Below, in pieces: positions 4,097-38,933 of a DNA stretch of 44,240 nucleotides. Source of the stretch: Escherichia phage vB_EcoS_SCS92. The notes beneath the pieces are model-generated. The model was not told the origin of the DNA. It saw only the letters and a program-made list of their open reading frames with translations, and ran no database searches. The first letter of the stretch is position 1, and each line of letters opens with the position of its first letter. The translations under genes and the position numbers were made by a program. The DNA lies in sequence record ON548432.1; one strand, given 5' to 3'.

Positions 4097-4125
4097 TTGC
4101 ACACACCAATATAATAGGGTACTAT
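4097..4125 (+). promoter_or_regulatory. sigma70-like promoter (TTGCAC-N17-TACTAT class) with embedded AATAG-N4-CTATT palindrome
   Basis: TTGCAC at 4097-4102, 17-bp spacer, TACTAT at 4120-4125, about 28 bp upstream of a gene with an AGGAGGTG Shine-Dalgarno. Near-identical copies at 38905, 15547(-) and 16739(-). Confidence 0.5.
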
Positions 4126-4152
4126 TCATTTAACTTAAACAGGAGGTGAAAA

Positions 4153-4356
4153 ATGTATGCAATTTGCGAAGTAGTTCAAGAGTTCGATGAAGAGTTCGAC
4201 GGTGACTTGTGCCGGGTTAAAAAGGTTCTGCAGGTTTTCCCTGACGCAATGTCTGCTTACAAGGCATTAGATATATTTGAACCTGGAAGATACGGGGATT
4301 ATGACACTGTTCTGAGGGTTGTCCATGAGCAGGATTTAAACACAAGATTCCGTTGA
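4153..4356 (+). CDS. hypothetical acidic 67-aa protein (opposite-strand moron in the head gene block)
   Basis: Strong AGGAGGTG Shine-Dalgarno 7 bp before the ATG, own promoter and a downstream hairpin. No recognisable domain. Confidence 0.55.
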   Translation: MYAICEVVQEFDEEFDGDLCRVKKVLQVFPDAMSAYKALDIFEPGRYGDYDTVLRVVHEQDLNTRFR

Positions 4357-4380
4357 AAAATAAAGCCCCATTTCGGGGCC
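4353..4380. terminator. terminator hairpin between convergent genes (stronger on minus strand)
   Basis: GCCCC-atttc-GGGGC stem; the minus-strand RNA is followed by TTTATTTTTC. Lies between the 4356 stop (+) and the 4386 stop (-). Confidence 0.4.
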
Positions 4381-4385
4381 TCTTA

Positions 4386-4847: not shown

Positions 4848-5890
4848 TATTCCCCTTTCAGATAATCAGCAACACGTTTATCGAGTTCCGCCATCTGCTT
4901 AAGCGTGAGCGGATTCCCGAAACCATCTACAGATATTACGCGAAACTCTTCCGGCGATATACCGCTGTTACGGAAAATCTTACCTCGCACCGGGCCGAGC
5001 GCCTGGTCCTGAAACCATGCTGGTTGTTGTTTCAGGAACTCGTAATATGTTGTGTCCGCGCTTACCTGAGTGCCGCCGTCAGCGCCCTTAGCCGCCCGTT
5101 TTGCGCCTTTATCGAGGAAGTCGAACTCTGAACTGATTACCGGAGCCGTGCACGACCGACAATTCGGATGGGCTGGGGGTGTCGGCCCTTTACCGATTTC
5201 CCACGTCATTCCGTCTCTGGCCCTGCAAATAGCGCTGGTACGGCTATCCAGCGTAGACACCCATTCATATTTCTCGATGATGTCGTCGTTCTGGCGGTAT
5301 GTCTCGTTGCGGGCTTCGTTGGATACGTGAGACAGCGCGGTGCGTATTACTGTAGCTGCGTTACGTTCTGAGATGTCAGCCAGCCCGCCCGCGCCTACGA
5401 CATTCTTAACAATCTGCCGTGTTGTCTGGCCTTGTACAAAGCCCATCTTAACGCCGGTTACAAGACGTGCTACTTCCGTTTCACCCCAGCCGTCCATCAG
5501 CTTAGTGAAATCAACGGGCTTGTCACTCAACGATAATGGCTGAAACTCGGCAGCAGCCCACACCTGTTCAGCGGTAGGTGTAACAAATTCCGCGTCTACG
5601 TTGGCGGTCAGTGTCTTTACGTTCCACTCAGCCTCGTACGCCGCCAGTTCCTTAAGGTCGTCTGTCAGCTTTGTCTGCCAGTCGCCCGTAATCCCTGTCA
5701 GTGCTTCTTCAAGGTCCCGTAACAGTTTATTCAGCCGCGCAGTGCTTCGCCCGTCGTCGCCGAATAACAGCACCTGCCGTTTGATTTCATCCCGCATCTC
5801 CTGAATGAACGGTGTGAGGTCTTTCACCTCACCGGATGCGGTGCGTTGCAGCCATATCTGATGGCTGATGAGGGATGTAAGTAAGCTCAT
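4847..5890 (-). CDS. head morphogenesis protein (Mu F / SPP1 gp7-like)
   Basis: 347 aa, directly downstream of the portal gene. Phage Mu F-like signature region (STLDSRTSAICRARDG). Confidence 0.7.
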   Translation of the reverse strand: MSLLTSLISHQIWLQRTASGEVKDLTPFIQEMRDEIKRQVLLFGDDGRSTARLNKLLRDLEEALTGITGDWQTKLTDDLKELAAYEAEWNVKTLTANVDAEFVTPTAEQVWAAAEFQPLSLSDKPVDFTKLMDGWGETEVARLVTGVKMGFVQGQTTRQIVKNVVGAGGLADISERNAATVIRTALSHVSNEARNETYRQNDDIIEKYEWVSTLDSRTSAICRARDGMTWEIGKGPTPPAHPNCRSCTAPVISSEFDFLDKGAKRAAKGADGGTQVSADTTYYEFLKQQPAWFQDQALGPVRGKIFRNSGISPEEFRVISVDGFGNPLTLKQMAELDKRVADYLKGE

Positions 5891-5924
5891 AGATCAACCC
5901 TGTGGCGCTAAAGTTAATAGCATA

Positions 5925-5949
5925 CTATAAGAAAGCCCCTTTCGGGGCT
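5925..5949 (-). terminator. hairpin (attenuator-like) between portal and head morphogenesis genes
   Basis: AGCCCC-tttc-GGGGCT stem; the minus-strand RNA continues with TTTCTTAT. Confidence 0.3.
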
Positions 5950-5959
5950 ATAGGTGAAC

Positions 5960-10059: not shown

Positions 10060-10142
10060 TAGTATCTACCCCACAGAAAACCGACCAATAGCCCAATGAA
10101 GTAACTAAGACCAACCAGACTTATAACAACCTCAAGACTCAT
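10059..10142 (-). CDS. hypothetical 27-aa hydrophobic peptide
   Basis: MSLEVVISLVGLSYFIGLLVGFLWGRY; GGGGTGAG Shine-Dalgarno. Very short, tentative. Confidence 0.25.
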   Translation of the reverse strand: MSLEVVISLVGLSYFIGLLVGFLWGRY

Positions 10143-11392: not shown

Positions 11393-11421
11393 AATATAAT
11401 AGGGTCGTAGGTAATAGTCAA
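11393..11421 (-). promoter_or_regulatory. sigma70-like promoter (TTGACT-N17-TATATT) on the minus strand
   Basis: Minus-strand reading gives TTGACT, a 17-bp spacer and TATATT, just downstream of the terminator at 11443-11474. Confidence 0.4.
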
Positions 11422-11442
11422 CTAGTCATTGCAGAAAATAGA

Positions 11443-14074: not shown

Positions 14075-14278
14075 TTATTTCTCCTGTTTTCCAAGTCGCT
14101 TAGGTGAGCAGATAGCGCGTACCTCTGAATCGTTGGGCTTGTCACCCTGAAACAGAAAGTGCGCGTTCTCGGCGGCGCGTGCCGCTGACTGGCACGCCTC
14201 CATCGAGTAAAACGTTTCTGATGCCGCCAGGTGCATCTGGCCTGCGGACAGTACCCAGATAAATAAGATGCTGGTCAT
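14075..14278 (-). CDS. small protein with N-terminal signal peptide
   Basis: 67 aa. N-terminus MTSILFIWVLSAGQMHLAAS is hydrophobic with an AxA-like cleavage site; two Cys in the mature part. Confidence 0.4.
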   Translation of the reverse strand: MTSILFIWVLSAGQMHLAASETFYSMEACQSAARAAENAHFLFQGDKPNDSEVRAICSPKRLGKQEK

Positions 14279-14748
14279 TTGATTTTCCCGTGGTTGTCGT
14301 GAAACCCATATTTGTTCTCAGCGTCGGCCCTCGCTGCTCTTGCGGCAGAAAGGTCGTCGAAATATCCTAAATGTACATTTTTACCGTTAACCTTTATGGT
14401 CCCTTTCCATTTACCCGCACGCTGGAACCAATACACTCCAGTAACACCTGACCGGTTGTTGGCGGCTAATTTTGTGTTTCTATGGTTTTCGGATGCTGTT
14501 ACTTTCCTAAGATTGCACAAACGATTGTCACTACGGTCGTGATTTATGTGGTCTATTTGCTCCCCTGGGTGAAGTAAATCGTCGGGGTTAAACATGTCCC
14601 ATATTATTCGATGTGCGCGGTACTGCCTCTTTTCGACCTTCAACACAACATAGCCATCCCTATTCTTACACGTTACTTTTGCTGAGGTCTTCTTCCATGA
14701 AAGAATGCCGGTAGTATGGTCATAATCGAATAGTGTGTGCCATTTCAT
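14275..14748 (-). CDS. HNH homing endonuclease with AP2-type DNA-binding domain
   Basis: HNH motif IDHINHDRSDNRLCNLRKVTASENHRN and an AP2-like C-terminus (SGVTGVYWFQRAGKWKGTIKVNGKNVHLGYFDD...KYGFHDNHG). Confidence 0.8.
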   Translation of the reverse strand: MKWHTLFDYDHTTGILSWKKTSAKVTCKNRDGYVVLKVEKRQYRAHRIIWDMFNPDDLLHPGEQIDHINHDRSDNRLCNLRKVTASENHRNTKLAANNRSGVTGVYWFQRAGKWKGTIKVNGKNVHLGYFDDLSAARAARADAENKYGFHDNHGKIK

Positions 14749-15515: not shown

Positions 15516-15546
15516 CCTCTGTCTCTCCTCTCGTTTGTGTAAATGA

Positions 15547-15575
15547 ATAGTAGCCTATTCTATATTAGTGTGCAA
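15547..15575 (-). promoter_or_regulatory. sigma70-like promoter (TTGCAC-N17-TACTAT class) with AATAG-N4-CTATT palindrome
   Basis: Minus-strand reading gives CTTGCAC, a 17-bp spacer and TACTAT, about 30 bp upstream of the 15515 ATG. Confidence 0.5.
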
Positions 15576-15654: not shown

Positions 15655-15689
15655 AATGAGAAAAATGATACGCTGCTGTGTAGCAGCGT
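15655..15689 (-). terminator. rho-independent terminator
   Basis: ACGCTGCT-gtgt-AGCAGCGT stem followed on the minus strand by ATCATTTTTCTCATTTTTG. Confidence 0.55.
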
Positions 15690-15722
15690 AAGTCACTCAG
15701 TAAAATCCCAAACTATTGAACA

Positions 15723-16704: not shown

Positions 16705-16738
16705 AACCACCACTCCTCTGTCTCGTTCCGATAAGTGA

Positions 16739-16767
16739 ATAGTATCCTATTATATTGGGGTGTGCAA
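16739..16767 (-). promoter_or_regulatory. sigma70-like promoter (TTGCAC-N17-TACTAT class) with AATAG-N4-CTATT palindrome
   Basis: Minus-strand reading CTTGCACaccccaatataataggaTACTAT, almost identical to the promoters at 4097 and 38905. Confidence 0.5.
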
Positions 16768-17138: not shown

Positions 17139-17167
17139 TTGATTTCCCATTATTCGCAATGTATACT
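17139..17167 (+). promoter_or_regulatory. sigma70-like promoter (TTGATT-N17-TATACT) for the plus-strand replication operon
   Basis: Hexamers with a 17-bp spacer about 30 bp upstream of the ATG at 17200. Confidence 0.45.
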
Positions 17168-17199: not shown

Positions 17200-17370
17200 A
17201 TGACACAGAATGAAGTAGCTGAGCGTATCGGGGTTACCCGTCGTACGCTGAATAACTGGTTAAAGAGTGGGAAGTTCCCGGATTGTTGTATTCGCATTAT
17301 GGGCCGCAGGCAGCCTGGTACGTTTGACCCGGAGAAAGTGGAAGCGTGGATTAAGGAGAACGTGAAATGA
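17200..17370 (+). CDS. HTH DNA-binding protein (AlpA/excisionase-like family)
   Basis: MTQNEVAERIGVTRRTLNNWLKSGKFP is a typical HTH. GAGGG Shine-Dalgarno before ATG 17200; the track begins at a TTG at 17167. Confidence 0.6.
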   Translation: MTQNEVAERIGVTRRTLNNWLKSGKFPDCCIRIMGRRQPGTFDPEKVEAWIKENVK

Positions 17371-19900: not shown

Positions 19901-19926
19901 GTAAAAAGAAAGGGGCTTTAAGCCCC
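19901..19926 (-). terminator. terminator hairpin between the convergent primase and HTH genes
   Basis: GGGGCT-tta-AGCCCC stem; the minus-strand RNA is followed by TTCTTTTTAC. The stem overlaps the HTH gene stop. Confidence 0.45.
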
Positions 19927-20133
19927 TTCACCTAACGCCAACCACTTGGCGTCTACTTCAAGCACTTCCGCCAGTTTAAACAGCGTCGCCGGGCGGACAT
20001 CCTGAGTTACCCCAAGTGCAAGCTGGTTAATCGCGCCCTGGGAGACACCGGCCAGGACAGCCAGACGGCGCTGGGAGATGCCGAGTTCTTTACGGCGTTG
20101 TTCTACACGAATGCCTAGTTCAGATGGTTGCAT
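19918..20133 (-). CDS. XRE-family (Cro/CI-type) HTH transcriptional regulator
   Basis: 71 aa. QRRKELGISQRRLAVLAGVSQGAINQLALG is a classic HTH_XRE motif. AAGGAG Shine-Dalgarno. Lone minus-strand gene with a divergent promoter region. Confidence 0.8.
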   Translation of the reverse strand: MQPSELGIRVEQRRKELGISQRRLAVLAGVSQGAINQLALGVTQDVRPATLFKLAEVLEVDAKWLALGEGA

Positions 20134-20164
20134 GTCAGCTACTCCTTAGTTAGTTGATATGTGA

Positions 20165-20193
20165 ATAGTACCATATTAATTATTTTAGAAAAG
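20165..20193 (-). promoter_or_regulatory. extended -10 promoter (TGnTACTAT) for the HTH regulator gene
   Basis: Minus-strand reading TGGTACTAT about 25 bp upstream of the AAGGAG Shine-Dalgarno; weak -35. Confidence 0.4.
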
Positions 20194-20197
20194 CCCA

Positions 20198-20226
20198 TTG
20201 ACATGTGAATAGTTCGCTATTATAGT
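20198..20226 (+). promoter_or_regulatory. near-consensus sigma70 promoter TTGACA-N17-TATAGT with AATAG-N4-CTATT palindrome in the spacer
   Basis: TTGACA at 20198-20203, TATAGT at 20221-20226, 32 bp upstream of the ATG at 20258. A weaker tandem copy (TTGATA ... TAATTA) lies at 20154-20182. Confidence 0.6.
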
Positions 20227-20257: not shown

Positions 20258-20758
20258 ATGTTAGAACAATTCTTAAAATTACTGGAACGTTTCGTAGTTG
20301 CACATGAACTGATTGCTGCGAACAGTGCGAAACAGTCAGCACAAGTTGCAGCGCCGTTAGAAGTAGAGACGGTAGTGTATACCAAAGAAGCGGTAGCTGA
20401 GTGCGAAAAAGAAGCAACAAAAGAAATCCCTGTTGAAGGTGAAGACATCGTTGACGCTAAACCAGCAGAAGAAGAGAAGCCGAAACGCAAGCCGCGTAAA
20501 GCTAAAGTAGAGGAGCCGACTCCAGAACCAGAAGAAGAGAAAGAAGAGGTCGATTACCAGTCTCTTCGTGACCAGATTCAGGCTATCGACGATGCAATTA
20601 ACGAAGGTCCGAGCGATGCCGCGTGCGACGATTCCGATGAACTGCTGGAGGAGTTCACCGGTAAGAAAATGAAGATTGCCGCGATTAAAGACGAAGACCT
20701 GGCTGAATACCTGAAACGCCTGACGGCGATTAAGAACAAGTATTTCGAAGAAGAATAA
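20258..20758 (+). CDS. highly acidic hypothetical protein (first gene of an early operon)
   Basis: 166 aa, Glu/Asp-rich with a short Lys-rich patch. GAGAGGTGAG Shine-Dalgarno. Followed by the hairpin GCGGCC-tccg-GGCCGC. Confidence 0.5.
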   Translation: MLEQFLKLLERFVVAHELIAANSAKQSAQVAAPLEVETVVYTKEAVAECEKEATKEIPVEGEDIVDAKPAEEEKPKRKPRKAKVEEPTPEPEEEKEEVDYQSLRDQIQAIDDAINEGPSDAACDDSDELLEEFTGKKMKIAAIKDEDLAEYLKRLTAIKNKYFEEE

Positions 20759-22312: not shown

Positions 22313-22512
22313 TTCAAGTAAATGAAATGCCCACAGATAAAGATTTTGTGATGATATGGCGCTGGGGCGGTTATATCCATTCGGAATCGTTTACGTTCCT
22401 GAACGGCACGATGGTGCGATACAACCATGTGGAGGATGAATTCGAACCCGTTGATATGAATGATTTCGAGAACATAGTCCGTATTGCGAAATTTTATTTG
22501 ACACCTGAATAG
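22309..22512 (+). CDS. hypothetical protein
   Basis: ATG at 22309 with an AGGAGG Shine-Dalgarno, overlapping the nuclease stop. Confidence 0.4.
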   Translation: MIQVNEMPTDKDFVMIWRWGGYIHSESFTFLNGTMVRYNHVEDEFEPVDMNDFENIVRIAKFYLTPE

Positions 22513-22526
22513 TTAGCTATTATAGT
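22498..22526 (+). promoter_or_regulatory. sigma70 promoter TTGACA-N17-TATAGT with AATAG-N4-CTATT palindrome
   Basis: TTGACAcctgaatagttagctatTATAGT, overlapping the stop of the upstream gene, 60 bp before the ATG at 22586. Confidence 0.55.
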
Positions 22527-22585
22527 TCTAATCACTGGCCGGGCAGCTTCCCGGAGTAAACGAAACTTAAAAGCGAGAAATTAAG

Positions 22586-23212
22586 ATGGGTATTAAACTG
22601 AATCTGCGTAAAGTAAACACTGCATGGGTTAACGTATTCGAACGTGCTGCCGACTCTGAGGACGAAAACCGGTCAATTATTAAGGGTAAATACAGCGTTA
22701 CGTTCATCATGCAGCCTGACCACCCTCAAATCGACGCGCTTTATGACACCGTTTACGCTGGAGTTGAACAAGCAATCGGTGCCGCCGCTGCCGAGAAATG
22801 GATGAAAGCCAACTACGGTGTAGACCACCACGCGGACAAGTGCGTGATACGTGACCTGGCAATGCGAGACAATCCTATTGAGGATTTTGAAGAAGGTCTG
22901 TATTTCCGGGCCACTACACCGTCACAGCCGGTGATTATGACATCGGCTAAAGGTGAAAAACAAACAGAGCCTGATTTCAACATCGACGGCGAACAGAATG
23001 AAGGCGAGCAGGTATATAGCGGATGTGTCGCAAACGTATCTGTAGAGTTATGGTGCAGCCAAAGATTGAAAAACCTGTGCGCTACCATCCTGGCGATCAA
23101 GTATATGGGTGAAGGTAAAGCGTTCGGCGGCTCCAGTGTAGTAGCGAGCACTGACGACCTGGAAGACGACGAAGAAGATGAAGCACCGCGTCGCGAACGT
23201 CGCCGCCGTTAA
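22586..23212 (+). CDS. ssDNA-binding protein (T7 gp2.5-like / DUF2815-like), putative
   Basis: N-terminal KLNLRKVNTAWVNVFE...KGKYSVTF pattern, acidic DDLEDDEEDE stretch near the C-terminus, and position between the nuclease and the polymerase. Confidence 0.5.
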   Translation: MGIKLNLRKVNTAWVNVFERAADSEDENRSIIKGKYSVTFIMQPDHPQIDALYDTVYAGVEQAIGAAAAEKWMKANYGVDHHADKCVIRDLAMRDNPIEDFEEGLYFRATTPSQPVIMTSAKGEKQTEPDFNIDGEQNEGEQVYSGCVANVSVELWCSQRLKNLCATILAIKYMGEGKAFGGSSVVASTDDLEDDEEDEAPRRERRRR

Positions 23213-25808: not shown

Positions 25809-26089
25809 CTAAAGAGGGACGCATACAGAAATACGCAAAAGAGCGATTCGAGGCCCTTGGTGGCCTCGTTCGTAAACTTTCCTACGAAGGACGTTCCGGC
25901 GCCCCTGACCTGCTGGTAATTCTCCCCGGCGGCATCGTCTGGTTCGTCGAGATAAAGAAAGACGAAAGCACGAAGCCGGATCCCCACCAGTTACGGGAGC
26001 ACGAGCGGATGCGTAAGCGTGGTGCTAATGTTTTTGTCGTTGGTTCGTTTAAACAGGTTGACGACCTAATAGCGAACTATTATAGTTAG
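25805..26089 (+). CDS. VRR-NUC domain nuclease
   Basis: 94 aa. GAPDLLVILPGGIVWFVEIKKDES fits the PD-(D/E)xK pattern of VRR-NUC. Confidence 0.7.
   Translation: MTKEGRIQKYAKERFEALGGLVRKLSYEGRSGAPDLLVILPGGIVWFVEIKKDESTKPDPHQLREHERMRKRGANVFVVGSFKQVDDLIANYYS
26058..26086 (+). promoter_or_regulatory. sigma70 promoter TTGACG-N17-TATAGT with AATAG-N4-CTATT palindrome
   Basis: Overlaps the 3' end of the VRR-NUC gene, 34 bp before the ATG at 26120. Confidence 0.5.
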
Positions 26090-26119: not shown

Positions 26120-26311
26120 ATGAAACACGAATATGACCGCAAACCAGCACGTGACATCGTACCTGGCGACATGATTTTCAACGTTAAGACCCGTCGGCCT
26201 GTTGCCGTTGATACGGTGTACGTCGAGTCGAACGGTAAACTGGTTATCGAAGATGTAACCGGTAACGTTACGGCGTTCGGGCGTAAAGAGTTAGTTCTGG
26301 TGGCAAAATGA
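26120..26311 (+). CDS. hypothetical protein
   Basis: 63-aa track ORF with an AAGGAA Shine-Dalgarno; ATGA overlap with the methyltransferase start. Confidence 0.4.
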   Translation: MKHEYDRKPARDIVPGDMIFNVKTRRPVAVDTVYVESNGKLVIEDVTGNVTAFGRKELVLVAK

Positions 26312-28681: not shown

Positions 28682-30862
28682 TTAATCGCAAAGTAAGGAT
28701 TTGGTGAAGTTTGGCACCCACGGCATCCTGTCAGAAATTACTAAATCTCTGATTAATATGCCGCAGTCTGCAGATGCGCCGCTATAGGTAACTTGGATAT
28801 TAAAACTAGTTGCCTGGCTTCTGGCAAGACTGATGGCTGCAAAATAATCGTTACCGGTCTGTGGTGATATAGTCACATATGAGGTTCCTAGTCCTATTTT
28901 TACGACAGTATTTGTCCCATAACTGGTAAATTGATGACGGAAAAGAACATAAACGCGGTCGTGATTGTTGAAAACCGCGTTTGTAGTTGTGATTGGTATT
29001 GTGAATGTTTTTGTGGTAGCGTCTCGTGCAAAGGTAACCTGTAGATTATCACCAGAAGTAGCCATAGTTACGCCTGATTCCTGCGGGTAAGCAGAACCGT
29101 TATTGGCGTTAAGCGCAGACCTTTTAAAAAGAACAAATGGTTTTGAAGACATTTGTTCACTCTCCCAGGTACTTGTCCCACTATCGTCCCAAAAAAGACC
29201 CTTAAAATAATACATTACACTGGATGACACGGTCCAACCGGCTAAATCAAACATGCTCCCGGTTGCATCTGTTAAGTCACAGTTAATAAATCTATTAAAT
29301 CTGTTGGTGGAGTTCTGGTATACGCAACAAGGTGTCGTTGTTCCTGTTGTGATATTAGGGTCCGCAAATGATACTGAGTTGAATGTTACGTATTCGCACC
29401 CATCCATGATAATGCCGCCGCGAGTCACAGCGCCGGAGCGTTGGATATTAGTAAATGTACTGTTACGCATATTCGCAAGAAGGGCAAAAGTACAGTCCGC
29501 TGTTAATGACCCATCGGCATTGTGGGCTTCTCCGTGGAAATCTGTAAAATGAATATCGCGGAAGCCCTTGACATCAGATGCACTATTTCCGGCTAGGCTT
29601 TCTGAATAGATGGCGTATGTTGCGCGACTCGCCCATCCTACACGGTCGAATGTACATGCAAAAATCTGTCGGTCTACATGGCAGGAGAACCTGATACTAG
29701 GGTTGCCAGATGTCGCCCATGAAGGGTTGTTGTCGATTGTGCTGAAAAACATACAATCCCGGAATGACAGGCCTGTTAAATTTCCACGGTCGATATCTGT
29801 ATTAGTCCTGAGCACAAGCCCACCGCCTAATGTCCATACGTGGCTTAATTCCAGGTTCTCCACGTCTCCAGATGTTGCGTTTTTAGGGTGGATAACAACA
29901 GCAGCATCGAAGGTTCCAGATACAGATATCCGACGGACGACGGAATTACGGCAGCCGCCAATGTGCAGCCCAACCACATTCGGCTGGGAACCATCTGCGT
30001 TTATCTGGAAACCTTCAATATAAAACGGGTCTTGTCCTGTGTTATCAATAGCGACTATAGCGGGTCCTGTGGAACCGGCAATTACGTTAGTGCCAGTAAA
30101 GTCAGGGAGAGCCATAAAGTATGTTTCTGGGTAGACCCCAACAATACGCGTCCTTTTTGGAAGGTTAAGAGTAGAATCAAGCCAAAAGAACCCAGCCGGG
30201 AAACGTAAAGTAACCCCAGTACCGATATTCTCGCTAGTTGCTGCCGCTAAAGCCTGCTCAATGTATGTCCTTACGCTTCCTAGTGCTTTTGACGCGTTAA
30301 CATCGTTTAGAGCTGCGATCACGTTAGCTGGAAGGTAGTCAAGTATGTTTATCTCTGTTTTTGCTGCTTGAGTCTTGCGGTAGTCAAACTCTGCCTGTAC
30401 GGTCCTGCCGGATGTTGTCCCAACTAACCCTGCGCCAGTGCTTAGGGCCAAATCACGGCGCAATGCAGCTTCACTAACGGCAACCCATGCGGTCTGGCCT
30501 ACTCCGCCCGTAGACGCCGGGGTTGAAGATGCCGGGATGGTTTTTGGCAGAGCACCCTTCCATGCATAATAGTTGCCGTCGCCTGATGGCCCTGGCCACA
30601 ACACCGCCAGGTCAGCGTCGTTAACGCCCAAAGTCCCACCTGTTTCGAATGTGAAAGACGCAGGTCTGAAACCCGCGTCGCGCAACACGGCAGGAAGCGT
30701 CTTCTGCGCCTGCCCGGTAACCTGATTTGTTGCGTAATCAATGTCTGCACCCGTAGCTACACCGCCGGATTTGCCAGTGATAACCTCGGCCTCGAAAATC
30801 TGATGTTTCTTGGCGGTCTGTAAATCCGCCAGGCTTAAAACGTCACCGCATCCGCTTGACAT
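28682..30862 (-). CDS. tailspike / receptor-binding depolymerase (beta-helix type)
   Basis: 726 aa, last gene of the tail module. N-terminal region (GNYYAWKGALPKTIPASSTPASTGGVGQTAWVAVSEAALRRDL) resembles the conserved N-terminal anchor of other phage tailspikes such as K1F endosialidase; the rest is Asn/Gly/Thr/Ser-rich and repetitive. Confidence 0.7.
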   Translation of the reverse strand: MSSGCGDVLSLADLQTAKKHQIFEAEVITGKSGGVATGADIDYATNQVTGQAQKTLPAVLRDAGFRPASFTFETGGTLGVNDADLAVLWPGPSGDGNYYAWKGALPKTIPASSTPASTGGVGQTAWVAVSEAALRRDLALSTGAGLVGTTSGRTVQAEFDYRKTQAAKTEINILDYLPANVIAALNDVNASKALGSVRTYIEQALAAATSENIGTGVTLRFPAGFFWLDSTLNLPKRTRIVGVYPETYFMALPDFTGTNVIAGSTGPAIVAIDNTGQDPFYIEGFQINADGSQPNVVGLHIGGCRNSVVRRISVSGTFDAAVVIHPKNATSGDVENLELSHVWTLGGGLVLRTNTDIDRGNLTGLSFRDCMFFSTIDNNPSWATSGNPSIRFSCHVDRQIFACTFDRVGWASRATYAIYSESLAGNSASDVKGFRDIHFTDFHGEAHNADGSLTADCTFALLANMRNSTFTNIQRSGAVTRGGIIMDGCEYVTFNSVSFADPNITTGTTTPCCVYQNSTNRFNRFINCDLTDATGSMFDLAGWTVSSSVMYYFKGLFWDDSGTSTWESEQMSSKPFVLFKRSALNANNGSAYPQESGVTMATSGDNLQVTFARDATTKTFTIPITTTNAVFNNHDRVYVLFRHQFTSYGTNTVVKIGLGTSYVTISPQTGNDYFAAISLARSQATSFNIQVTYSGASADCGILIRDLVISDRMPWVPNFTKSLLCD

Positions 30863-30874: not shown

Positions 30875-33442
30875 TTAATTAAAACCATTGCTGAATCCGT
30901 CGGAGAAGCTGCTGCCGTATGGCGCGACGCCGTCGTATTTATAGAATCCGTCGTCATAGTTGTAACCAGTAATCTTGACCGTGCGGTCGTCGCCGGGGTC
31001 GATTGAAGAAACAACTATCTTCTGAGCATTATGCCTTGCTTCGTTGCCGAATGAAAACTCAGTTTTTAGTGCGCTATTCCCTGTGTAGATTGCCTCCTCC
31101 GGCGCGGAGAGCATAATCACCTCGCGGTCGTGGCTTCCTTTGATAACAGAAATACTCTGCACGGAGCCATCGCGCTTCTTGAGGATGATGGAGTGGTCAT
31201 CGCCGGGGGTAAACGTAACAGGTTGCGACAGTGTCAGCGTAAGCCCATTAACGGCAACAACATAACCATCCTGAGGCGCGATACGTGAACCTTTAACCAC
31301 GCTGATTACGCCGCCGGGAGTAGCGAGAGCGCCTTCTTCGGTAGCTTCGAACTCTACGACAACTTTACTTAACGTGTTGCGCTGGTAGCGACGCCACGCC
31401 AGCCAGTACGCTTGCTGATAGTTACGTACACCCTTCGATTCGTACTCCTCGGTGTTCGCGCCGAGTTCTTCCGGGATATAAATCGTCTCCTGTACGTTAG
31501 TATCCGGGTCAATGTACGAGAACGACAGGCTATCGTAGGTTGTCGAATCGTTGAACGTGCGCGTCCATTTCTCTGTACCAGTAGTTTTGCTGCGGTGGGT
31601 GAACACCATTTCGGGCCCCGCAACCGGACGATCAAATCGCAGCATAATATCCGCACCTTTACGGTACGCAGTACAGAAAACGGCTTCCGCGATGGTCTGA
31701 ACGATGTCCTGCATCGTGGTGTCGTAGTCGTCGAACGTGTAGCAGAACTGCCCCGCTAATTCACTTCCAAAATAGGATTCAATTTCTTCCTGCACGGCAA
31801 GTAACTTGTCCATGTTTGCCGTTGTCAGTTCCAGATTACCCACCACAGGGTCACGCGCCAGCCTGATTAGCGACTGCACGGCCTGAGTGTTCGGTGTCAT
31901 TACCGTATCGAATACGCCGTTACCTAAGTATTTGTAGCACATCTCGGTAGCAATCATGCGCAGTTCCGGTTCTGACACCTCGGCGGCACGTGGGGTTTGT
32001 TTACGAGCGCAGTGTACAGTAGTGCGGTTGCCGTAGTGCGGGGTTGTATCCAGTGACTGCCCGTACAGATTAGTGAAAGTAACCTCGTCGCTAACAGTAC
32101 CCTCAAAATCTTTATCAGTATCGGAAACACGGCGCATACGGGCGCGGAATCTGGAAGCGGTAGGCAAGCTTCCGTATAGGGTAATACCAGTGTAATCGGT
32201 GTTTCTCCCTGTAACAGTGCCTTGCACGGTGAATATGCCACCAACGGGCTGTTTCAATTCGTCCACCATCTGGTATTGCAGTTCCACCGTAACGGAGGCA
32301 CGGTTATAATCGCCGTTATATTTATACATGCCGTTGCTGGCGGCGACATTGGCTACAACACGGTTGACCGTACCGCGGGTGATGTACGCCCATTCAGAGA
32401 GGGAAGCCGCGTAAGTGTCCGCCGGACCTATGAGATGGTTACCCTCTTCACCTATAAACCACACCGATGACCCTAGCTGGTTCCATATTGATTGATTTGT
32501 ACTGACGTCCACAATAAGGGTCGTTTCACTAACAGAAAGAACCGTGTACCTCCCGTCCAGGTTAACCTCATTACCTAAAGACCCAGGAGTTGTGTCCGCA
32601 TATACGTTATCGAAATATGCCAGGTCTCCGACAGCCAAAAACTCATCGAAACCAGCGTCATCGCCTACTACAACGCCGGTTGTTCCCTGCCGCTGGACAG
32701 TGTAGTCCTGCACGTCTATAGCGATATCATTAGGGGCGGGAAGAACAGCGCCATCGACATCGGCGTTTTTAAATGTAACGTACAATTTCTGGTCTATCGG
32801 GTCGCCAATATGCAATTGTGGGGCGTTGGTGTTATTCGGCGAAGTGTAAGGGGAATACACCGCCACCGACGAGCCAGTTATCTCGCTGATTCGGGTATCT
32901 GCCTCAGTTACACCGTCTTCCTCAATATGCAGATACCCTCGACCGGCGTCATAGTACGCATATTCAATAAGTGCACCCGCGGCATTAAACACCTTATATG
33001 TTTGCATCAGGTCATTGGGGATGGTCTGCACTGTCCCGCAGATATCATAGGAACGCTCATAAGGTCGTGGCTTGTTTGAGCGGTCGGTGAGACTGTTGTT
33101 AGGCGACGTAGCCTGATTGTTGGTAGCGGAATAATTAGCGTTAGCCGCTGTGTTTAGCCCGAACAATTTGGCGATTGGCTTAAGGATGAAACTGAATACA
33201 CTCCCGATGGCGTCGCCAATGCCGCCGCCAGCGCCCTCAATAATGTGGTACACGGCGTCCTCGTCTTTGAGCGCGTCGAAGTCGTCTGTAACATCAGTAT
33301 CATCCCCAATCTCGCCAAGATAGACGCGTACCGGAACGCCGTCCGGGATACGGTTAACGACAAACTCCATCGGCATCCCGACGTGTTTTGTACGGTTGAA
33401 AGCCCCGTCGGCATTTCGCGTGTAGTGCAGGATTATCGCCAA
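30875..33442 (-). CDS. tail tip / central fibre protein (lambda J-like)
   Basis: 855 aa, directly downstream of the K-like gene; called by size and position. Confidence 0.55.
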   Translation of the reverse strand: MAIILHYTRNADGAFNRTKHVGMPMEFVVNRIPDGVPVRVYLGEIGDDTDVTDDFDALKDEDAVYHIIEGAGGGIGDAIGSVFSFILKPIAKLFGLNTAANANYSATNNQATSPNNSLTDRSNKPRPYERSYDICGTVQTIPNDLMQTYKVFNAAGALIEYAYYDAGRGYLHIEEDGVTEADTRISEITGSSVAVYSPYTSPNNTNAPQLHIGDPIDQKLYVTFKNADVDGAVLPAPNDIAIDVQDYTVQRQGTTGVVVGDDAGFDEFLAVGDLAYFDNVYADTTPGSLGNEVNLDGRYTVLSVSETTLIVDVSTNQSIWNQLGSSVWFIGEEGNHLIGPADTYAASLSEWAYITRGTVNRVVANVAASNGMYKYNGDYNRASVTVELQYQMVDELKQPVGGIFTVQGTVTGRNTDYTGITLYGSLPTASRFRARMRRVSDTDKDFEGTVSDEVTFTNLYGQSLDTTPHYGNRTTVHCARKQTPRAAEVSEPELRMIATEMCYKYLGNGVFDTVMTPNTQAVQSLIRLARDPVVGNLELTTANMDKLLAVQEEIESYFGSELAGQFCYTFDDYDTTMQDIVQTIAEAVFCTAYRKGADIMLRFDRPVAGPEMVFTHRSKTTGTEKWTRTFNDSTTYDSLSFSYIDPDTNVQETIYIPEELGANTEEYESKGVRNYQQAYWLAWRRYQRNTLSKVVVEFEATEEGALATPGGVISVVKGSRIAPQDGYVVAVNGLTLTLSQPVTFTPGDDHSIILKKRDGSVQSISVIKGSHDREVIMLSAPEEAIYTGNSALKTEFSFGNEARHNAQKIVVSSIDPGDDRTVKITGYNYDDGFYKYDGVAPYGSSFSDGFSNGFN

Positions 33443-35714: not shown

Positions 35715-38026
35715 TATTTAAACCCCGGCGCATTTCTTGTGGCCTTGCGGGCCTTGCTAATCTTACTGTTACTGTTCTGCAAAGAGGCAGCCACTTGCTC
35801 CTCGATGATGATACGCAAACGGCCTTCATCATCTTGCTCAGTGGATACGTTGCCGATTTGAGAACTCGTGTTGTTTACGATAGTAACATTAGACGGTCCG
35901 GAAGAAGACCCGTTTTGCCCCATAATTTCTTTCATCTGCTGTGCGGTGCGTACACGTGACGCACCAGCGGGCATGATAACTTCTGGTTTACCGCGTTCGG
36001 CGATGGTTGAAGCCTGCCCCGCGGATAACTGTCCGCCCTGTTCACGTGCGGACCTGATAGCGGAAATCTGCGCCATACCCGCCCCAACGGCAGCAGCGGC
36101 AGCTACAGGAGCCAGGAACGGGCCAACTACAGGGATAGCCGCTGTTGACTTATACGCCTCAATAGCCGCGGTGTACGTGGCTATAGTGGCCTGCACGATA
36201 GCGAATGCCTTGTACGCGCCAGAAGCCTCGCCCAAAGCCGAACCGATGTTTGAGGCCATGTTACCGAAGGCCGTTGCCGTTGCGTCGGCACGCTTCGTGG
36301 CGTACTGCTCATTGATGGCGTTAAGCGCCGCCTGGTACTGCTTCTCACTAATAAGCCCCTGCTCACGGTACTTATCCGCTACCTTCAGTTTCTGCTGTTC
36401 CTGGATGTCGAGAAGCTCAAGCTCAGTAGCGTTCTGACCCATAATCTGTGCCATGAAGTCCTCGCCTTTCTGCTGCTTTTCCTGCTGCTCTTTTCTTTTC
36501 TTATCCAGTTCTTCCTGTCTGGCCTGCTCGGCTGTGAGCATAATTTGAGTTTTGGCGTTTTCATACTGCTGCTGGCTTATCGTTCCGGCGCGGTTGAACT
36601 CCTCCAGTTTCGCCAGTTTCTGTTCTTCCGCAGCGGTAATGCGCGAAATCTCATCTCCGGTTGTGCGGTCGACAGTAGCCAGGAAATCTTCCGCCGCTTT
36701 TTTCTGTCGTTCAGCCGCCGTTTCTTCGCGTTTGGCTTGTGCCGCCAGCCGTTTCTCGTTCGATTTAGCCTCGCGGTCTGCCTTCTCTTTCTCGGTCTTG
36801 TCAATGCGGGCGATGTCTTGCTGAGCTTCCGTGTCGCGAGCGGCATTATACGCGGCTATCTGTTCTTTGGTGACAGCTTCACGTTTAGCGAACGCCTGTT
36901 TATCGAGTTCAGCTTGCGCCCGGATGCGCTCACGGTCGCTTAAGATGGCAATTTGCTGGTTTTTGACGATGGCGTCGTTCTGTTCCTGGAATCTCTGCGT
37001 GGTTGAGTTGACGTTACGGCCGAGATTCTTTTGGGCCTCCGCCGCCGCGTTTGCCGACTTCTCCGCGTTCTCCAGTGCCGTGGCGTTCTTGTTGGCATTG
37101 TCGGTCAGGCGGATAAGCTCCGGGTTCAGCTGTTTTGTGTTACCCAGCCAGTCGGTAAACACATCGGCGATGCGGCGGGCATTCTCCGCGGTTGGTTCTT
37201 TGTTAAACGCACTCTGCGCCGCTATCATCTCCAGCGCCTGGTCACGGTTAACCCCGAACTTACTGCTAAGCTCTGCGATATTCTGCGCCAGCATGTTGAC
37301 GCCTACGATGTTACCCTCGTAAGTGCCGCCGAGTTTTTCTAATGTGTCGCCTACATCTGCACCCTTAGACACCAGCGCATCATACTGGCTAATAGCTGAT
37401 GCTGTGGAGGCTTTCCATGTTTCCCATGATTCCGCGTCCTCACGAACAGCTTTAGCTGTTTGCTGTGCGATAAGGTCAGCGTTAGCCTTAGCCAAAGCGA
37501 GCTGAGTCTCCGCCGCTTCTCTGCTGATTTGGGTAAGCTGGATAAGGCCGTCTGTCAGTTCGAGGGAGCCAGATGCCGTTTGTTGGAAAGTATCTTTTAA
37601 CTGTTTCTGTGCGGCTTCGAGGTCTTTTGAACTGCCTTCTGCTTCGGTTAGCGATTTATACAGGACGCCACCAACAGCTGATGCAAGAGCAATTACAGCC
37701 CCAAGCACCGCACCACCGGGGCCGAAAGCACCCGCAAGCTGCGAACCTTGCTGTCCTATCGCGACGAATGCGGACGTACCGGATTGCAACTGGACAACCA
37801 TGTCCTGCACCTGGAAGCCTACCTGCCCAGCGGCATTACGGAACTTAGCGAAACCGTCAGAGGCGGCTTTAGACGTAGCGGAGTTTACTTTATTAACATC
37901 CGGAGTCAGCTTGTTTACTGCGGTATCCGCACGGTCTGCAGACGACGCCATAGCGTCAAGCTGTTTGGCAGCTACGTCAGCACCTTCTGTTTTTACTCTG
38001 GCAATTAGGGAAGCCGTATCAGCCAT
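35714..38026 (-). CDS. tail tape measure protein
   Basis: About 770 aa, helical and Ala/Gln/Lys/Glu-rich, downstream of the G/GT chaperones. Likely ATG at 38026 (MADTASL) with a GAGGG Shine-Dalgarno. Confidence 0.8.
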   Translation of the reverse strand: MADTASLIARVKTEGADVAAKQLDAMASSADRADTAVNKLTPDVNKVNSATSKAASDGFAKFRNAAGQVGFQVQDMVVQLQSGTSAFVAIGQQGSQLAGAFGPGGAVLGAVIALASAVGGVLYKSLTEAEGSSKDLEAAQKQLKDTFQQTASGSLELTDGLIQLTQISREAAETQLALAKANADLIAQQTAKAVREDAESWETWKASTASAISQYDALVSKGADVGDTLEKLGGTYEGNIVGVNMLAQNIAELSSKFGVNRDQALEMIAAQSAFNKEPTAENARRIADVFTDWLGNTKQLNPELIRLTDNANKNATALENAEKSANAAAEAQKNLGRNVNSTTQRFQEQNDAIVKNQQIAILSDRERIRAQAELDKQAFAKREAVTKEQIAAYNAARDTEAQQDIARIDKTEKEKADREAKSNEKRLAAQAKREETAAERQKKAAEDFLATVDRTTGDEISRITAAEEQKLAKLEEFNRAGTISQQQYENAKTQIMLTAEQARQEELDKKRKEQQEKQQKGEDFMAQIMGQNATELELLDIQEQQKLKVADKYREQGLISEKQYQAALNAINEQYATKRADATATAFGNMASNIGSALGEASGAYKAFAIVQATIATYTAAIEAYKSTAAIPVVGPFLAPVAAAAAVGAGMAQISAIRSAREQGGQLSAGQASTIAERGKPEVIMPAGASRVRTAQQMKEIMGQNGSSSGPSNVTIVNNTSSQIGNVSTEQDDEGRLRIIIEEQVAASLQNSNSKISKARKATRNAPGFK

Positions 38027-38390
38027 CTTCTCTGCCCTCAAATATTCCGTCTAAGCCCATGATAACCTCGGCTTCGAACAAACTTATGCCGTAACCGGCG
38101 ACATCACGAAACGCTACCAAATCTTGCCATTTGAGCGCATCGCGCGGGATTATAACGATAGTATCATCTGTTTCGCGCTGTAGGAATTTAATGGCACGGT
38201 ATTTCTCGAACACGTCGATAAGAGAAACGGGGCATTCCGGCCCCGTCGCTTCTTTCATCTGCGGTTCTTTAATCACGCCCATTGCAATCAAAGCCGCCTG
38301 GTGGCCCGCCGCGATGTCGTCGAATTGCTTACGTTTGTGGCGGTCGACAAAGCACCATTGCGCAAATTCATACAGCGCTTTTACTTTTCC
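38019..38390 (-). CDS. tail assembly chaperone, -1 frameshift extension (T part of G/GT)
   Basis: The -1 frame stays open from the G stop to 38019. Slippery heptamer GGAAAAG lies immediately before the G stop codon (minus strand, 38384-38390). Confidence 0.4.
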   Translation of the reverse strand, partial: GKVKALYEFAQWCFVDRHKRKQFDDIAAGHQAALIAMGVIKEPQMKEATGPECPVSLIDVFEKYRAIKFLQRETDDTIVIIPRDALKWQDLVAFRDVAGYGISLFEAEVIMGLDGIFEGREDG

Positions 38391-38797
38391 GAGAGTTTCT
38401 CACGGCTATCGGTGTGATGCTTAACTACGGCCTCTGCCAACCCACTGTACTGGTCGAACAGGTTAGCAAGCGCCTCTTTGCTGAATGGTTCGTCGAATGA
38501 CCAACCGGTGACGATTTCCACGGCAAGCTGCTTGTTCAGGTCCATCACCCGCCAGCCCTTCTCATCATTATAGCGCGCCCAGTTATTCAGCGCCTCGCAC
38601 TCTTTATCTAATGGCGCAAGTTCTTCCGTAAGGCGTCGAATTGCCGTTGTGTAGGCGCGGCCCGCACGAACACCAGCGTCACAATCGGGGCCAATGACCT
38701 GTAGCCATTCACCAGAGTCTTTACCACTCGGCAGAAGGATAGGCATTTTAGTGCCAGCAGCATGGCGGTCCGCAAAATAAAAATCAGAAAGTTTCAT
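38381..38797 (-). CDS. tail assembly chaperone (lambda G-like)
   Basis: 138 aa, immediately upstream of the tape measure gene, with a slippery site at its 3' end. Confidence 0.5.
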   Translation of the reverse strand: MKLSDFYFADRHAAGTKMPILLPSGKDSGEWLQVIGPDCDAGVRAGRAYTTAIRRLTEELAPLDKECEALNNWARYNDEKGWRVMDLNKQLAVEIVTGWSFDEPFSKEALANLFDQYSGLAEAVVKHHTDSREKLSEK

Positions 38798-38904
38798 TCT
38801 TTAATCCTTTGGTTAAGAGGTTACTGGTTAAGGTTGACGCGCCAGACGGGAACCACCCGCTTTTCGTGTGCGACACTAGGCGCAAAATTATTCTAGCACA
38901 CTAC

Positions 38905-38933
38905 TTGCACACCCCAATATAATAGGGTACTAT
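38905..38933 (+). promoter_or_regulatory. sigma70-like promoter (TTGCAC-N17-TACTAT class) with AATAG-N4-CTATT palindrome, driving the opposite-strand island
   Basis: CTTGCACaccccaatataatagggTACTAT, 28 bp upstream of the ATG at 38962. Confidence 0.55.

Follow-up and report, generated by a model that had tools for sequence, protein, structure and literature searches.

The DNA analysed here (the window) is a 44,240-nucleotide stretch of Escherichia phage vB_EcoS_SCS92, sequence record ON548432.1, which differs from Escherichia phage NTEC3 (Kagunavirus, Guernseyvirinae) by substitutions only. It contains seven exact copies of a 14-bp inverted repeat, AATAGNNNNCTATT (AATAG-N4-CTATT), starting at 4113, 15546, 16738, 20208, 22508, 26068 and 38921, whereas dinucleotide-preserving shuffles gave a mean of 0.05 copies and a maximum of 1, in agreement with a previous sequence-only reading that had counted seven perfect copies and put the chance expectation far below one. 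This is the top-enriched 5+5 palindrome of the window, and when up to one mismatch is allowed the number of sites rises to 12, against 0.94 expected.

All seven perfect copies fall inside -35/-10 frames with 17-18 nt between the boxes, ahead of genes that have Shine-Dalgarno sequences, and both classes of frame described earlier were confirmed. In class 1 (TTGCAC-N17-TACTAT) the palindrome overlaps the -10 box, specifically with its right half-site. Two of these elements lie on the + strand, namely 4097-4126 (-35 TTGCAC at 4097-4102, predicted operator AATAGGGTACTATT at 4113-4126, -10 TACTAT at 4120-4125), which would drive a 67-aa gene at 4153-4356, and 38905-38934 (-35 38905-38910, operator 38921-38934, -10 38928-38933), which would drive 38962-41195. 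The other two lie on the - strand, at 15546-15575 (-35 15575-15570, operator 15546-15559, -10 15552-15547), reading from 15515 leftwards, and at 16738-16767 (-35 16767-16762, operator 16738-16751, -10 16744-16739), ahead of 16704-15723. In class 2 (TTGAC(A/G)-N17-TATAGT; all on the + strand) the palindrome occupies the spacer and reaches the -10 box. The element at 20198-20226 (-35 TTGACA 20198-20203, operator 20208-20221, -10 TATAGT 20221-20226) would drive the replication operon starting at 20258, with a gene for an XRE-type helix-turn-helix (HTH) protein diverging from it; that at 22498-22526 (-35 22498-22503, operator 22508-22521, -10 22521-22526) would drive a gp2.5-like SSB gene (22586-23212) together with that for DNA polymerase; and that at 26058-26086 (-35 TTGACG 26058-26063, operator 26068-26081, -10 26081-26086) would drive 26120 onward, i.e. 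a 63-aa protein, a methyltransferase and an SNF2 helicase. A longer, asymmetric form of the motif, TATAATAG-N4-CTATTCA, is oriented along transcription in class 1 and opposed to it in class 2. From the end of the palindrome to the start codon there are 26-64 bp at the seven sites, so that the 25-60 bp originally given was nearly right.

Of the five sites with one mismatch, four are found in intergenic promoter regions. The first, AATAGTACCATATT at 20164-20177, may be a degenerate eighth operator ahead of the XRE gene; it belongs to a duplicated class 2 frame (TTGATAtgtgAATAGT..., 20154-20183), lies downstream of a candidate XRE promoter, TTCACA(20209-20204)-16-TAAAAT(20187-20182), and is also present in EC3-1 and Bas76. 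Two others are possible weak operators centred on the -35 box of leftward promoters: 11413-11426, on TTGACT (11421-11416) of TTGACT-17-TATATT, which recurs with the identical mismatch at Jersey 42338 and EC3-1 39780, and 4022-4035, on TTGACT (4030-4025) of TTGACT-17-TAAGCT, ahead of the spanin/head block and conserved at EC3-1 32453. The fourth, AATAGCATACTATA at 5916-5929, lies between the portal and head-morphogenesis genes and is conserved at EC3-1 34361, its function being uncertain.

The repeated motif in itself is not new, as two papers on sister Kagunavirus phages already list the same 20-mers as "phage promoters" found with PHIRE, a program that extracts repeated 20-mers: Table S2 of the fBC-Eco01 paper (consensus tgAATAGTa-ccTATTat-T, 7 copies) and Table S4 of the VB_EcoS-Golestan paper (TAATAGGGTACTATTCATTA and similar 20-mers, 7 copies). 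Both lists include the imperfect site of the 20164 type, and the Golestan list contains the 5916 site; the counterpart of the 4022 site is given in the fBC-Eco01 paper as a host promoter (HP1). As far as these tables and the text accompanying them go, only 20-mers are reported, with no mention of the palindrome, the -35/-10 frames or a link to a regulator. The GenBank entry for Salmonella phage Jersey (KF148055) annotates promoters at 29238-29266, 32925-32953 and 42343-42371, which are orthologues of those at 26058, 22498 and 11421 of the window, and another at 39893-39920, a class-1-type site with the palindrome; however, they are annotated there merely as matches to TTGACA(N15-18)TATAAT, and the embedded palindrome goes unmentioned.

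The fBC-Eco01 paper labels its 20-mers "Phage RNAP promoter", crediting them to a phage-encoded RNA polymerase. We regard this explanation as effectively refuted, since all the elements have host-type -35 and -10 boxes 17-18 nt apart, the motif, a palindrome, is found in both orientations with respect to genes, and no such polymerase was annotated in NTEC3, Bas76, EC3-1, Jersey, VSiA or Tsm2, nor was a polymerase domain detected by Pfam in the eight large proteins scanned. The class 2 promoters at 20198, 22498 and 26058 are the top sigma-70 matches in 14-28 kb (11/12, 11/12 and 10/12, respectively), whereas class 1 fits the consensus more poorly (7/12, under the threshold of the scan tool). 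Relatives never depart from TTG in the -35 box or from TA...T in the -10 box, while their remaining hexamer positions drift (TTGCAC/TTGCGC/TTGCAG/TTGACA). The sequences thus support the view that the seven elements behave as host sigma-70 promoters.

Would the palindrome then be simply the conserved spacer of strong early promoters, as the sequence-only reading had offered as a fallback, or an operator for a phage regulator? Orthologous loci were retrieved via the XRE protein, without using the motif as bait, giving 26-33 orthologous Kagunavirus sequences per site. Column conservation was 0.95-1.00 in the half-sites, 0.83-0.94 in the central N4 and 0.82-0.91 in the flanks. The palindrome was perfect in 25/27 unique orthologues of the 15546 site and in all 29 of the 16738 site (29/29), the latter with five different N4, and the 26058 site was represented by 11 different 14-mers with eight different N4, its half-site columns nevertheless scoring 0.99. 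The 4097 site was kept in nine distinct relatives' sequences despite differing downstream genes. Beyond Kagunavirus, AATAG-N4-CTATT is carried by Jerseyvirus and by Serratia phage Tsm2, where it occurs in both class 1 and class 2 frames; orthologues of the 22498 promoter are found at Jersey 32953, Tsm2 4171 and L193 6831. The distance from the -35 box to the palindrome varies, with values of 4, 7 and 10-11 nt and, for Cornellvirus, 19 nt; at Jersey 16957, the orthologue of the 38905 promoter, it is 7 nt.

Other Guernseyvirinae lineages have different palindromes at their promoters. In the Cornellvirus phages VSiA and SE1 it is TATTA-N6-TAATA (TATTAG-N4-nTAATA), with three and two perfect sites, respectively, including one 19 nt past the -35 box in the orthologue of the 38905 promoter in both; no clear site was seen at the VSiA promoter adjoining the XRE gene. 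Lineage L177 has AATAC-N4-GTATT (four sites, each in a promoter, vs. 0.23 expected), and L193 and L199 have TTAGC-N2-GCTAA (three perfect sites each, vs. <=0.01 expected), which at L193 6831, the orthologue of the 22498 promoter, stands in the same frame, with the -35 and -10 boxes retained. These variants were picked post hoc among about 3,600 patterns in every genome. By themselves, the counts in VSiA and L177 are only marginally significant, and it is their location in promoters that gives them weight. In two further lineages, defined by the XRE helix 3 sequences SQSALSF and SQGCFGH, no clearly enriched promoter palindrome was observed within 10 kb on each side of the gene.

One may also consider that no protein binds the palindrome, which would have been inherited with duplicated promoter cassettes while its right half-site was conserved as a -10 box. 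Indeed, the class 1 copies have about 36 bp in common (TTGCACACcCCAATATAATAGGnTACTATTCA), those of class 2 have common flanks (TGAATAGT...CTATTATAGTT), CTATT overlaps TACTAT or TATTAT, and the frame at 20154-20183 is a duplicated one. Yet the left half-site, which has no role for RNA polymerase, is conserved as strongly as the right one, with the N4 between them free; two unrelated frames share the palindrome, in varying register and orientation; and other lineages have related but different palindromes, which have replaced it with the boxes kept at least in the L193 orthologue of 22498. Duplication without a binding protein is therefore unlikely. A host DNA-binding protein is more improbable still: although the half-site is common to E. 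coli, Salmonella and Serratia phages, Salmonella is host to Jerseyvirus as well as to Cornellvirus, which have unlike palindromes at orthologous promoters, and this argues against a host factor. We know of no enterobacterial regulator with an AATAG-N4-CTATT consensus. Thus, the varied registers, the presence of both orientations, the conserved half-sites around a free N4 and the lineage-specific replacement with boxes kept support the reading of the palindrome as an operator module separate from the promoter spacer, in line with the candidate operator first proposed and against the spacer fallback, which we reject.

As to what may bind it, the best candidate, supported by homology and distribution, is the 71-aa XRE protein encoded at 19918-20133 on the - strand (Pfam HTH_3, E 2.3e-12), a 434-Cro-like protein proposed here as the repressor. 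In the PDB, 434 Cro, a protein of the same size, comes out on top (E 2e-6), aligning with the XRE protein over residues 6-68, i.e. its full length. Orthologues are present in Jersey, VSiA, SE1, Tsm2 and further IMG/VR lineages; every lineage with promoter palindromes also has the protein, and it is the sole recognisable DNA-binding protein common to them all. By comparison gp20258, which is likewise conserved throughout, is acidic (pI 4.5) and of low complexity. Sites lie beside its gene in Kagunavirus (20164 and 20208), L177 (2396 and 2461), Jersey (35812) and L193 (9896). Helix 3 has a distinct sequence in each palindrome lineage, but it also differs among the proteins of Kagunavirus, Jerseyvirus and Tsm2, which share AATAG (SQGAINQ, SQSLITH and SQGMLNH), and L178, with SQGRVSH, keeps AATAG-like sites; no residue-to-base code could be derived. 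In a low-time-resolution RNA-seq study of Kagunavirus K1B4, an HTH gene (XRE or another) is among four early-peaking genes (PMC12645636).

The XRE protein had been named as the only clear HTH candidate, and while it remains the best one, it is not the sole HTH protein, since a 56-aa HTH_17 protein (Pfam PF12728, E 2e-7) is encoded at 17200-17370. Its matches are confined to records of this phage group, almost all from Salmonella or Escherichia phages. Binding by this protein, by gp26120 (the 63-aa product of 26120-26311, directly after an operator-bearing promoter) or by an uncharacterised small protein is a doubtful alternative. In its favour, neither HTH_17 nor gp26120, whose distributions agree, occurs in VSiA and SE1, where AATAG-N4-CTATT is likewise missing, and gp26120 is called a "transcriptional regulator" in the EC3-1 record. 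However, both are missing from Tsm2 (tblastn, E 1e-2), which has the palindrome, and from Cornellvirus (VSiA, SE1), L177 and L193, where promoter palindromes are still present. Across Kagunavirus and Jerseyvirus, HTH_17 identity is 86-100%, but the EC3-1 copy reaches just 71% and its helix is changed, whereas the palindrome there is the same. For gp26120 there was no Pfam match at the curated threshold (one sub-threshold hit), and its PHROG family is of unknown function. The binder could also be one of the many small proteins without known function.

The motif with its enrichment, promoter context, conservation and lineage-specific replacement, together with the homology and distribution of the XRE protein, are the observations on which we base the following model, which we consider probable. 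In this virulent Kagunavirus, the early and DNA-metabolism units would begin with seven promoters read by host sigma-70 RNA polymerase, each with a 14-bp operator in its core, made of 5-bp half-sites, AATAG and CTATT, flanking four bases without constraint. The operator would be bound by the 434-Cro-like protein as a dimer. With the operator centred at about -12 in class 1 and -18 in class 2 from the predicted start, RNA polymerase would be blocked by such a dimer. A rising level of the protein would lower the activity of these promoters, its own included, while those of structural genes, with imperfect sites or none, would stay relatively favoured. The binding itself, repression over activation, and the timing are what we infer. 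A bound protein that activates, or works both ways (e.g. by a MerR-like change of the spacer), seems improbable to us. Class 1 promoters are indeed weak relative to the consensus, and in three class 1 regions a TATATT resembling a -10 box, though not accompanied by a good -35, faces divergent late genes from the opposite strand; yet the operators, centred at about -12, -18 and -33, overlap positions contacted by RNA polymerase, the protein consists of one Cro-type HTH domain, for which no activation surface is known, and the class 2 promoters, being near consensus (10-11/12), should need no activator.

If repression by the XRE protein is correct, the palindrome system would be an ordinary kind of phage gene switch. 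The operators of 434 Cro are 14 bp long, conserved in their outer bases and variable in the middle. The resemblance extends to the single-domain HTH_3 protein, to palindromic 14-bp sites that, like those of 434 OR/OL, overlap the -35 and -10 boxes, and, as in lambdoid phages, to an XRE gene that points away from the replication genes, with sites between the two. In contrast to 434, the annotation shows neither a CI partner nor an integrase or lysogeny module, so that no bistable switch is expected; the predicted half-site is AATAG rather than ACAA; and instead of a tripartite OR/OL there are seven perfect and about four imperfect sites spread over 44 kb, one per promoter. Many dispersed operators at or near promoters, by which one repressor controls the whole genome, are known from P1 C1 and mycobacteriophage L5 gp71, both immunity repressors of temperate phages. 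Their sites, of 17 bp in P1 and 13 bp in L5, are asymmetric, and those of L5 act inside transcription units too, whereas in this virulent phage the sites are symmetric and restricted to core promoters.

Exactly seven copies of AATAGNNNNCTATT occur in the window (at 4113, 15546, 16738, 20208, 22508, 26068 and 38921), as against 0.05 in shuffled sequences, and AATAG-N4-CTATT is the most enriched palindrome with two 5-bp arms in the window. This bears out the sequence-only reading, which had counted seven perfect copies and put the chance expectation far below one. That reading had also placed all copies within promoter-like elements of two classes, and these frames are found as described. In class 1 (TTGCAC-17-TACTAT; 4097 and 38905 on the plus strand, 15575-15547 and 16767-16739 on the minus strand) the -10 box lies inside the right half of the palindrome, and in class 2 (TTGAC(A/G)-17-TATAGT; 20198, 22498 and 26058, all on the plus strand) the palindrome lies in the spacer. 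The elements have the TTGACA-like -35 box and the TATAAT-like -10 box of sigma-70 promoters, at a spacing within the usual 16-18 bp: those of class 2 are the three best sigma-70 matches within 14-28 kb, agreeing with the consensus at 10-11 of 12 positions with 17-bp spacing, and those of class 1 agree at 7 of 12, keeping TTG and TA...T, which are invariant among relatives. The palindrome lies 26-64 bp from the start codon, close to the 25-60 bp that had been proposed, and Shine-Dalgarno sequences precede the starts. A longer asymmetric motif, TATAATAG-N4-CTATTCA, runs along transcription in class 1 and opposite to it in class 2. When one mismatch is allowed, 12 sites are found in the window where 0.94 are expected; the imperfect ones lie in front of the gene for XRE (20164), centred on the -35 TTGACT of leftward promoters facing structural genes (4022 and 11413), at 5916, and within a tail gene (31771), the last probably by chance. 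A role in RNA is unlikely because transcription is predicted to start downstream of the palindrome, and an Rfam search of the window returned no known RNA family.

Three lines of evidence, namely register, footprint and replacement, support the view that the palindrome is a module separate from the promoter, as would suit the candidate operator for a phage regulator that had been proposed. The alternative offered with that proposal, that it is simply the conserved spacer of strong early promoters, is rejected by a variable register, a free N4 and the replacement of the palindrome elsewhere. The distance from the -35 box to the palindrome is 4 nt in class 2 and 10 nt in class 1; in Jersey (a Jerseyvirus, KF148055) it is 7 nt at one promoter (16957, TTGCAT-aaccgtt-AATAG..., with -10 TATTAT) and 11 nt at another (39910), and in Cornellvirus it is 19 nt. 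For the footprint we used 80 IMG/VR loci that were retrieved via the XRE protein and not via the motif, and relied on flanking sequence alone to locate the orthologues of five sites in the window, the sample in Kagunavirus being 26-33 unique sequences per site. Conservation in this sample was 0.95-1.00 in the half-site columns, 0.83-0.94 in the N4 and 0.82-0.91 in the flanks, and the orthologues of P26058 (promoters are named here by their -35 position) have eight different central N4 between constant half-sites.

As for replacement, AATAG-N4-CTATT is absent altogether from the Cornellvirus VSiA and from phage SE1, and TATTAG-N4-nTAATA is found in promoter regions of both (three perfect copies in VSiA, a count only marginal by itself, and two in SE1), including a site at VSiA 14749 and SE1 25391 that lies within the promoter orthologous to P38905. 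In the IMG/VR lineage L177, four promoters carry AATAC-N4-GTATT, among them the two of the XRE intergenic region (four copies against 0.23 expected, again only marginal by itself). Two further IMG/VR loci, L193 and L199, have three perfect copies each of TTAGC-N2-GCTAA, where at most 0.01 are expected, and one copy lies in an orthologue of P22498 that has kept a -35 TTGACT and the -10 TATAGT and is recognisable because of its hairpin-containing leader. These variants were chosen post hoc from about 3,600 candidates per genome, and the argument rests on promoter location and orthology. Counted from the dyad outward, all of the variants have in common a G or C at position 3, an A at position 4 and a T at position 5.

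Other palindromes were seen in the same genomes. At 5569-5595 of Jersey, the promoter at the P4097 position carries a perfect 10+4+10 palindrome, AATGGTATAT-CTAT-ATATACCATT, instead of AATAG-N4-CTATT. At 43197 of the Kagunavirus EC3-1, and in related IMG/VR loci, one more perfect palindrome (AATAGTAACCTATT) adjoins the terminator TACGCTGCTACACAGCAGCGTA, and neither a -35 nor a -10 box is evident there; at the corresponding place in the window, near 15669-15690, there is no perfect or one-mismatch copy. A scan of the collection with TGAATAGNNNNCTATTAT returned 120 loci, of which 35 are Guernseyvirinae-like and 85, presumably chance matches, are without substantial similarity to the window; the scan served merely to supply additional sequences.

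Two HTH proteins are recognisable in the window, the 71-aa XRE protein (19918-20133) and a 56-aa HTH_17 protein (17200-17370). The sequence-only reading, which had named XRE as the only clear candidate regulator, thus overlooked the second, although XRE does stand as the best-supported candidate. It matches Pfam HTH_3 (PF01381) over residues 11-65 of 71 (E 2.3e-12, 47 bits against a cut-off of 23), its PDB matches include 434 Cro, 434 repressor and P22 C2, and 434 Cro, which likewise has 71 aa, is its best solved relative (E 2e-6, residues 6-68). As in the Cro subtype (about 60-75 aa), it is a single domain and has neither an oligomerisation nor a peptidase domain at its C-terminus. Palindromic sites lie over promoters including its own control region, where the XRE promoter region has site 20164 on one side and site 20208 on the other. 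Operators of 434 Cro are 14 bp long, constant in their outer bases and variable at the centre, and the window palindrome has the same geometry.

XRE is present in all palindrome-bearing lineages, always divergent from the replication operon. AATAG-N4-CTATT goes with XRE helix 3 SQGAINQ in Kagunavirus, SQSLITH in Jerseyvirus and SQGMLNH in the Serratia phage Tsm2, and a degenerate AATAG-like operator goes with SQGRVSH in the IMG/VR locus L178; TATTAG-N4-nTAATA is paired with TQSAISH in Cornellvirus, AATAC-N4-GTATT with TQGGIGH in L177, and TTAGC-N2-GCTAA with SQGYISH in L193 and L199. Operator type follows XRE clade, and the sole HTH protein common to the lineages is XRE; this lends indirect support to XRE as a dimer that would bind the operator and repress transcription. 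Among the proteins conserved across lineages that were scanned, no other has a DNA-binding domain. No residue-to-base code between helix 3 and operator emerged, three lineages with different helix 3 sharing AATAG, and a tentative correlation of residue 32 in the helix with position 6 of the operator was broken by L178, with its AATAG-type sites. In the XRE lineages SQSALSF and SQGCFGH (Guernseyvirinae-like IMG/VR contigs L182-L188, L206; L192, L194-L196) there was no clearly enriched promoter palindrome in the 10 kb on each side of the XRE gene; single perfect promoter palindromes were seen in these contigs, AACCAACATTGGTT at 13191 of L182 and ATACTAGCGTTCTAGTAT around 15485 of L195. One may also consider that the palindrome is bound by a DNA-binding protein of the host, but this is unlikely, as Jerseyvirus and Cornellvirus share a Salmonella host and their palindromes differ.

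Other phage proteins were considered as binders as well. HTH_17 was attractive at first because it appeared to be present wherever AATAG-N4-CTATT occurs and missing in VSiA and SE1: Kagunavirus and Jerseyvirus have both it and gp26120 (63 aa, 26120-26311) at 86-100% identity, and VSiA and SE1 have neither. As a general binder HTH_17 is rejected, since Tsm2, a member of the Guernseyvirinae without HTH_17 and without gp26120, keeps AATAG-N4-CTATT (in a class 1 frame at 10097 and in class 2 frames at 4171 and, with one mismatch, 225) and Cornellvirus has its own palindrome family; gp26120 is rejected by the same Tsm2 argument. Cornellvirus, L177 and L193 are likewise without both proteins, yet have promoter palindromes. 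The HTH_17 protein (plus strand; excisionase/MerR-like) shows 71-100% identity over 442 phage records, nearly all Salmonella or Escherichia, with no match under 60% identity in that search; its PHROG matches include terminase small-subunit HTH families, and its candidate promoter (TTGATT-17-TATACT, 17139-17167) has no palindrome. We also rejected gp20258 (20258-20758, plus strand, 166 aa, pI 4.5), which is acidic and of low complexity and therefore no DNA binder. It is the first gene product of the replication operon, conserved in all five Guernseyvirinae lineages compared and without a Pfam domain, and it has 2,305 homologues in the protein collection, with 82-100% identity to the window protein among the 120 matches listed; some records call it a "13.88 kDa late protein", a name at odds with its length.

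A search gave 488 related records. Escherichia phage NTEC3 (OK539620.1; Kagunavirus, Guernseyvirinae) is equal in length to the window (44,240 bases) and differs from it by 1,461 substitutions and no indels, the differences falling in blocks (several 1-kb bins with none, others with 90-140), which has the look of a consensus guided by a reference, or of a mosaic recombinant, rather than of an independent assembly. None of these substitutions falls in the seven sites or their promoter boxes. The window and its close relatives are virulent siphoviruses, and the annotations of NTEC3 and five relatives contain neither an integrase nor a CI-type repressor nor an RNA polymerase. There are two HNH homing-endonuclease genes (14275-14748, minus strand; 40481-40951, plus strand), which have the same Jersey and VSiA genes as matches, with 46-48% identity. 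Neither is found in the related phage Bas76, which is consistent with mobile insertions.

In the Cro-like model that we infer as to binding, sign of regulation and timing, XRE would be made early and would turn down about seven early or middle promoters plus its own. Operator centres lie at about -12 in class 1, -18 in class 2 and -33 at the imperfect sites 4022 and 11413, and repression is the economical reading because all of these overlap RNA polymerase contacts and class 2 is near-consensus. Perfect operators precede units of small early genes (16704-15723; 15515 leftwards; 4153-4356; 38962-41195) and of replication genes (from 20258, 22586 and 26120 onward), and the promoters of the head and tail blocks (such as TTGACT-17-TAAGCT at 4030-4002, TGcTAGAAT at 38898-38890 and TTGACT-17-TATATT at 11421-11393) have imperfect sites only, or none. 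The -35 of the candidate XRE promoter, TTCACA(20209-20204)-16-TAAAAT(20187-20182), abuts operator 20208-20221, and a weak operator (20164-20177) lies just downstream, an arrangement that suggests negative autoregulation. It is possible, though rather improbable, that a lone Cro-type protein is the global timer of a strictly virulent subfamily, with one operator per early or middle promoter giving joint shut-off, and that the operator-helix pairs (AATAG, AATAC, TATTAG, TTAGC) are "immunity-like" specificity groups; if so, co-infecting related virulent phages would cross-repress or escape each other's early programmes.

Several further features of these promoters were observed. A decayed tandem copy of a class 2 promoter (TTGATAtgtgAATAGTACCATATTAATTA; 20154-20183, plus strand) lies within the XRE control region, 44 bp upstream of P20198, with which it has the 17-nt repeat TTGAYATGTGAATAGT in common. 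Between P22498 and the gene for a gp2.5-like SSB there is a leader, CACTGGCCGGGCAGCTTCCCGGAGTAAAC (22531-22559, plus strand), which contains a 5-bp GC hairpin and has no Rfam match. Jersey and VSiA have almost the same leader, and Tsm2 and L193 have a related hairpin. The fold of the window hairpin (22537-22554) is of ordinary stability (z 0.62); the leader may serve as a translational operator or as a processing site. Kagunavirus contigs (L012-L129) keep the promoter/operator cassette at 4113, 38921, 15546 and 16738, often with a different first gene behind it, and there are at least four kinds of leader/start sequence after P4097 and three after P38905; a conserved cassette with a changing first gene marks these promoters as places where small early "cargo" genes are swapped.

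The motif itself is already published, with a wrong attribution. In the paper on the Kagunavirus fBC-Eco01 seven "Phage RNAP promoters" are listed, with the consensus tgAATAGTa-ccTATTat-T (PMC9825357), and in that on VB_EcoS-Golestan, another Kagunavirus, seven PHIRE sequences, e.g. TAATAGGGTACTATTCATTA (PMC7203180). Both lists include the imperfect site before the XRE gene, and the available text of the two papers makes no mention of the palindrome, the host-type boxes or a regulator. Promoters of a phage single-subunit RNA polymerase would call for such an enzyme, and none is annotated in NTEC3 or the five relatives, nor did Pfam find an RNA polymerase domain among the eight large window proteins scanned. 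In the GenBank record of Jersey, the Jersey counterparts of window 26058, 22498 and 11421 are entered as sigma-70 promoters, and so is a class-1-type site (39893-39920). Kagunavirus RNA-seq consists of gene-level, low-resolution time courses only, with a helix-turn-helix gene among four early-peaking genes (PMC12645636). The literature searched contained no experimental work on Guernseyvirinae promoters and no transcription map, nor any Cro-like regulators of virulent phages with dispersed operators.

Repressor/operator control of early phage promoters is textbook matter and will not surprise specialists. If the Cro-like model holds, the published assignment to a phage RNA polymerase would be corrected, and the regulatory map would come down to about seven host-polymerase promoters, one 14-bp operator and one 71-aa repressor, in a group (Kagunavirus, Jerseyvirus and Cornellvirus of the Guernseyvirinae) whose members are common candidates for phage therapy and biocontrol. 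The lineage-specific operator variants are a natural set for the evolution of Cro-type specificity, and the promoter/operator cassettes could be compact repressible parts for phage engineering.

Among known systems, the window system would work like 434 or lambda Cro on PR and PL, having at the sequence level what characterises a Cro-type XRE repressor. A lambdoid immunity region, with a divergent cI-type gene and tripartite OR and OL, is a different thing, for here CI is missing, the operators are not tripartite and the sites lie dispersed: the annotations of NTEC3 and its relatives show no lysogeny function, no integrase and no second gene of XRE/CI type, and the XRE intergenic region has two sites only, the remaining ones being scattered, one per promoter. 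Dispersed operator sites are found with P1 C1 and L5 gp71, and the one-per-promoter arrangement seen here is reminiscent of these two regulators more than of the lambdoid region.
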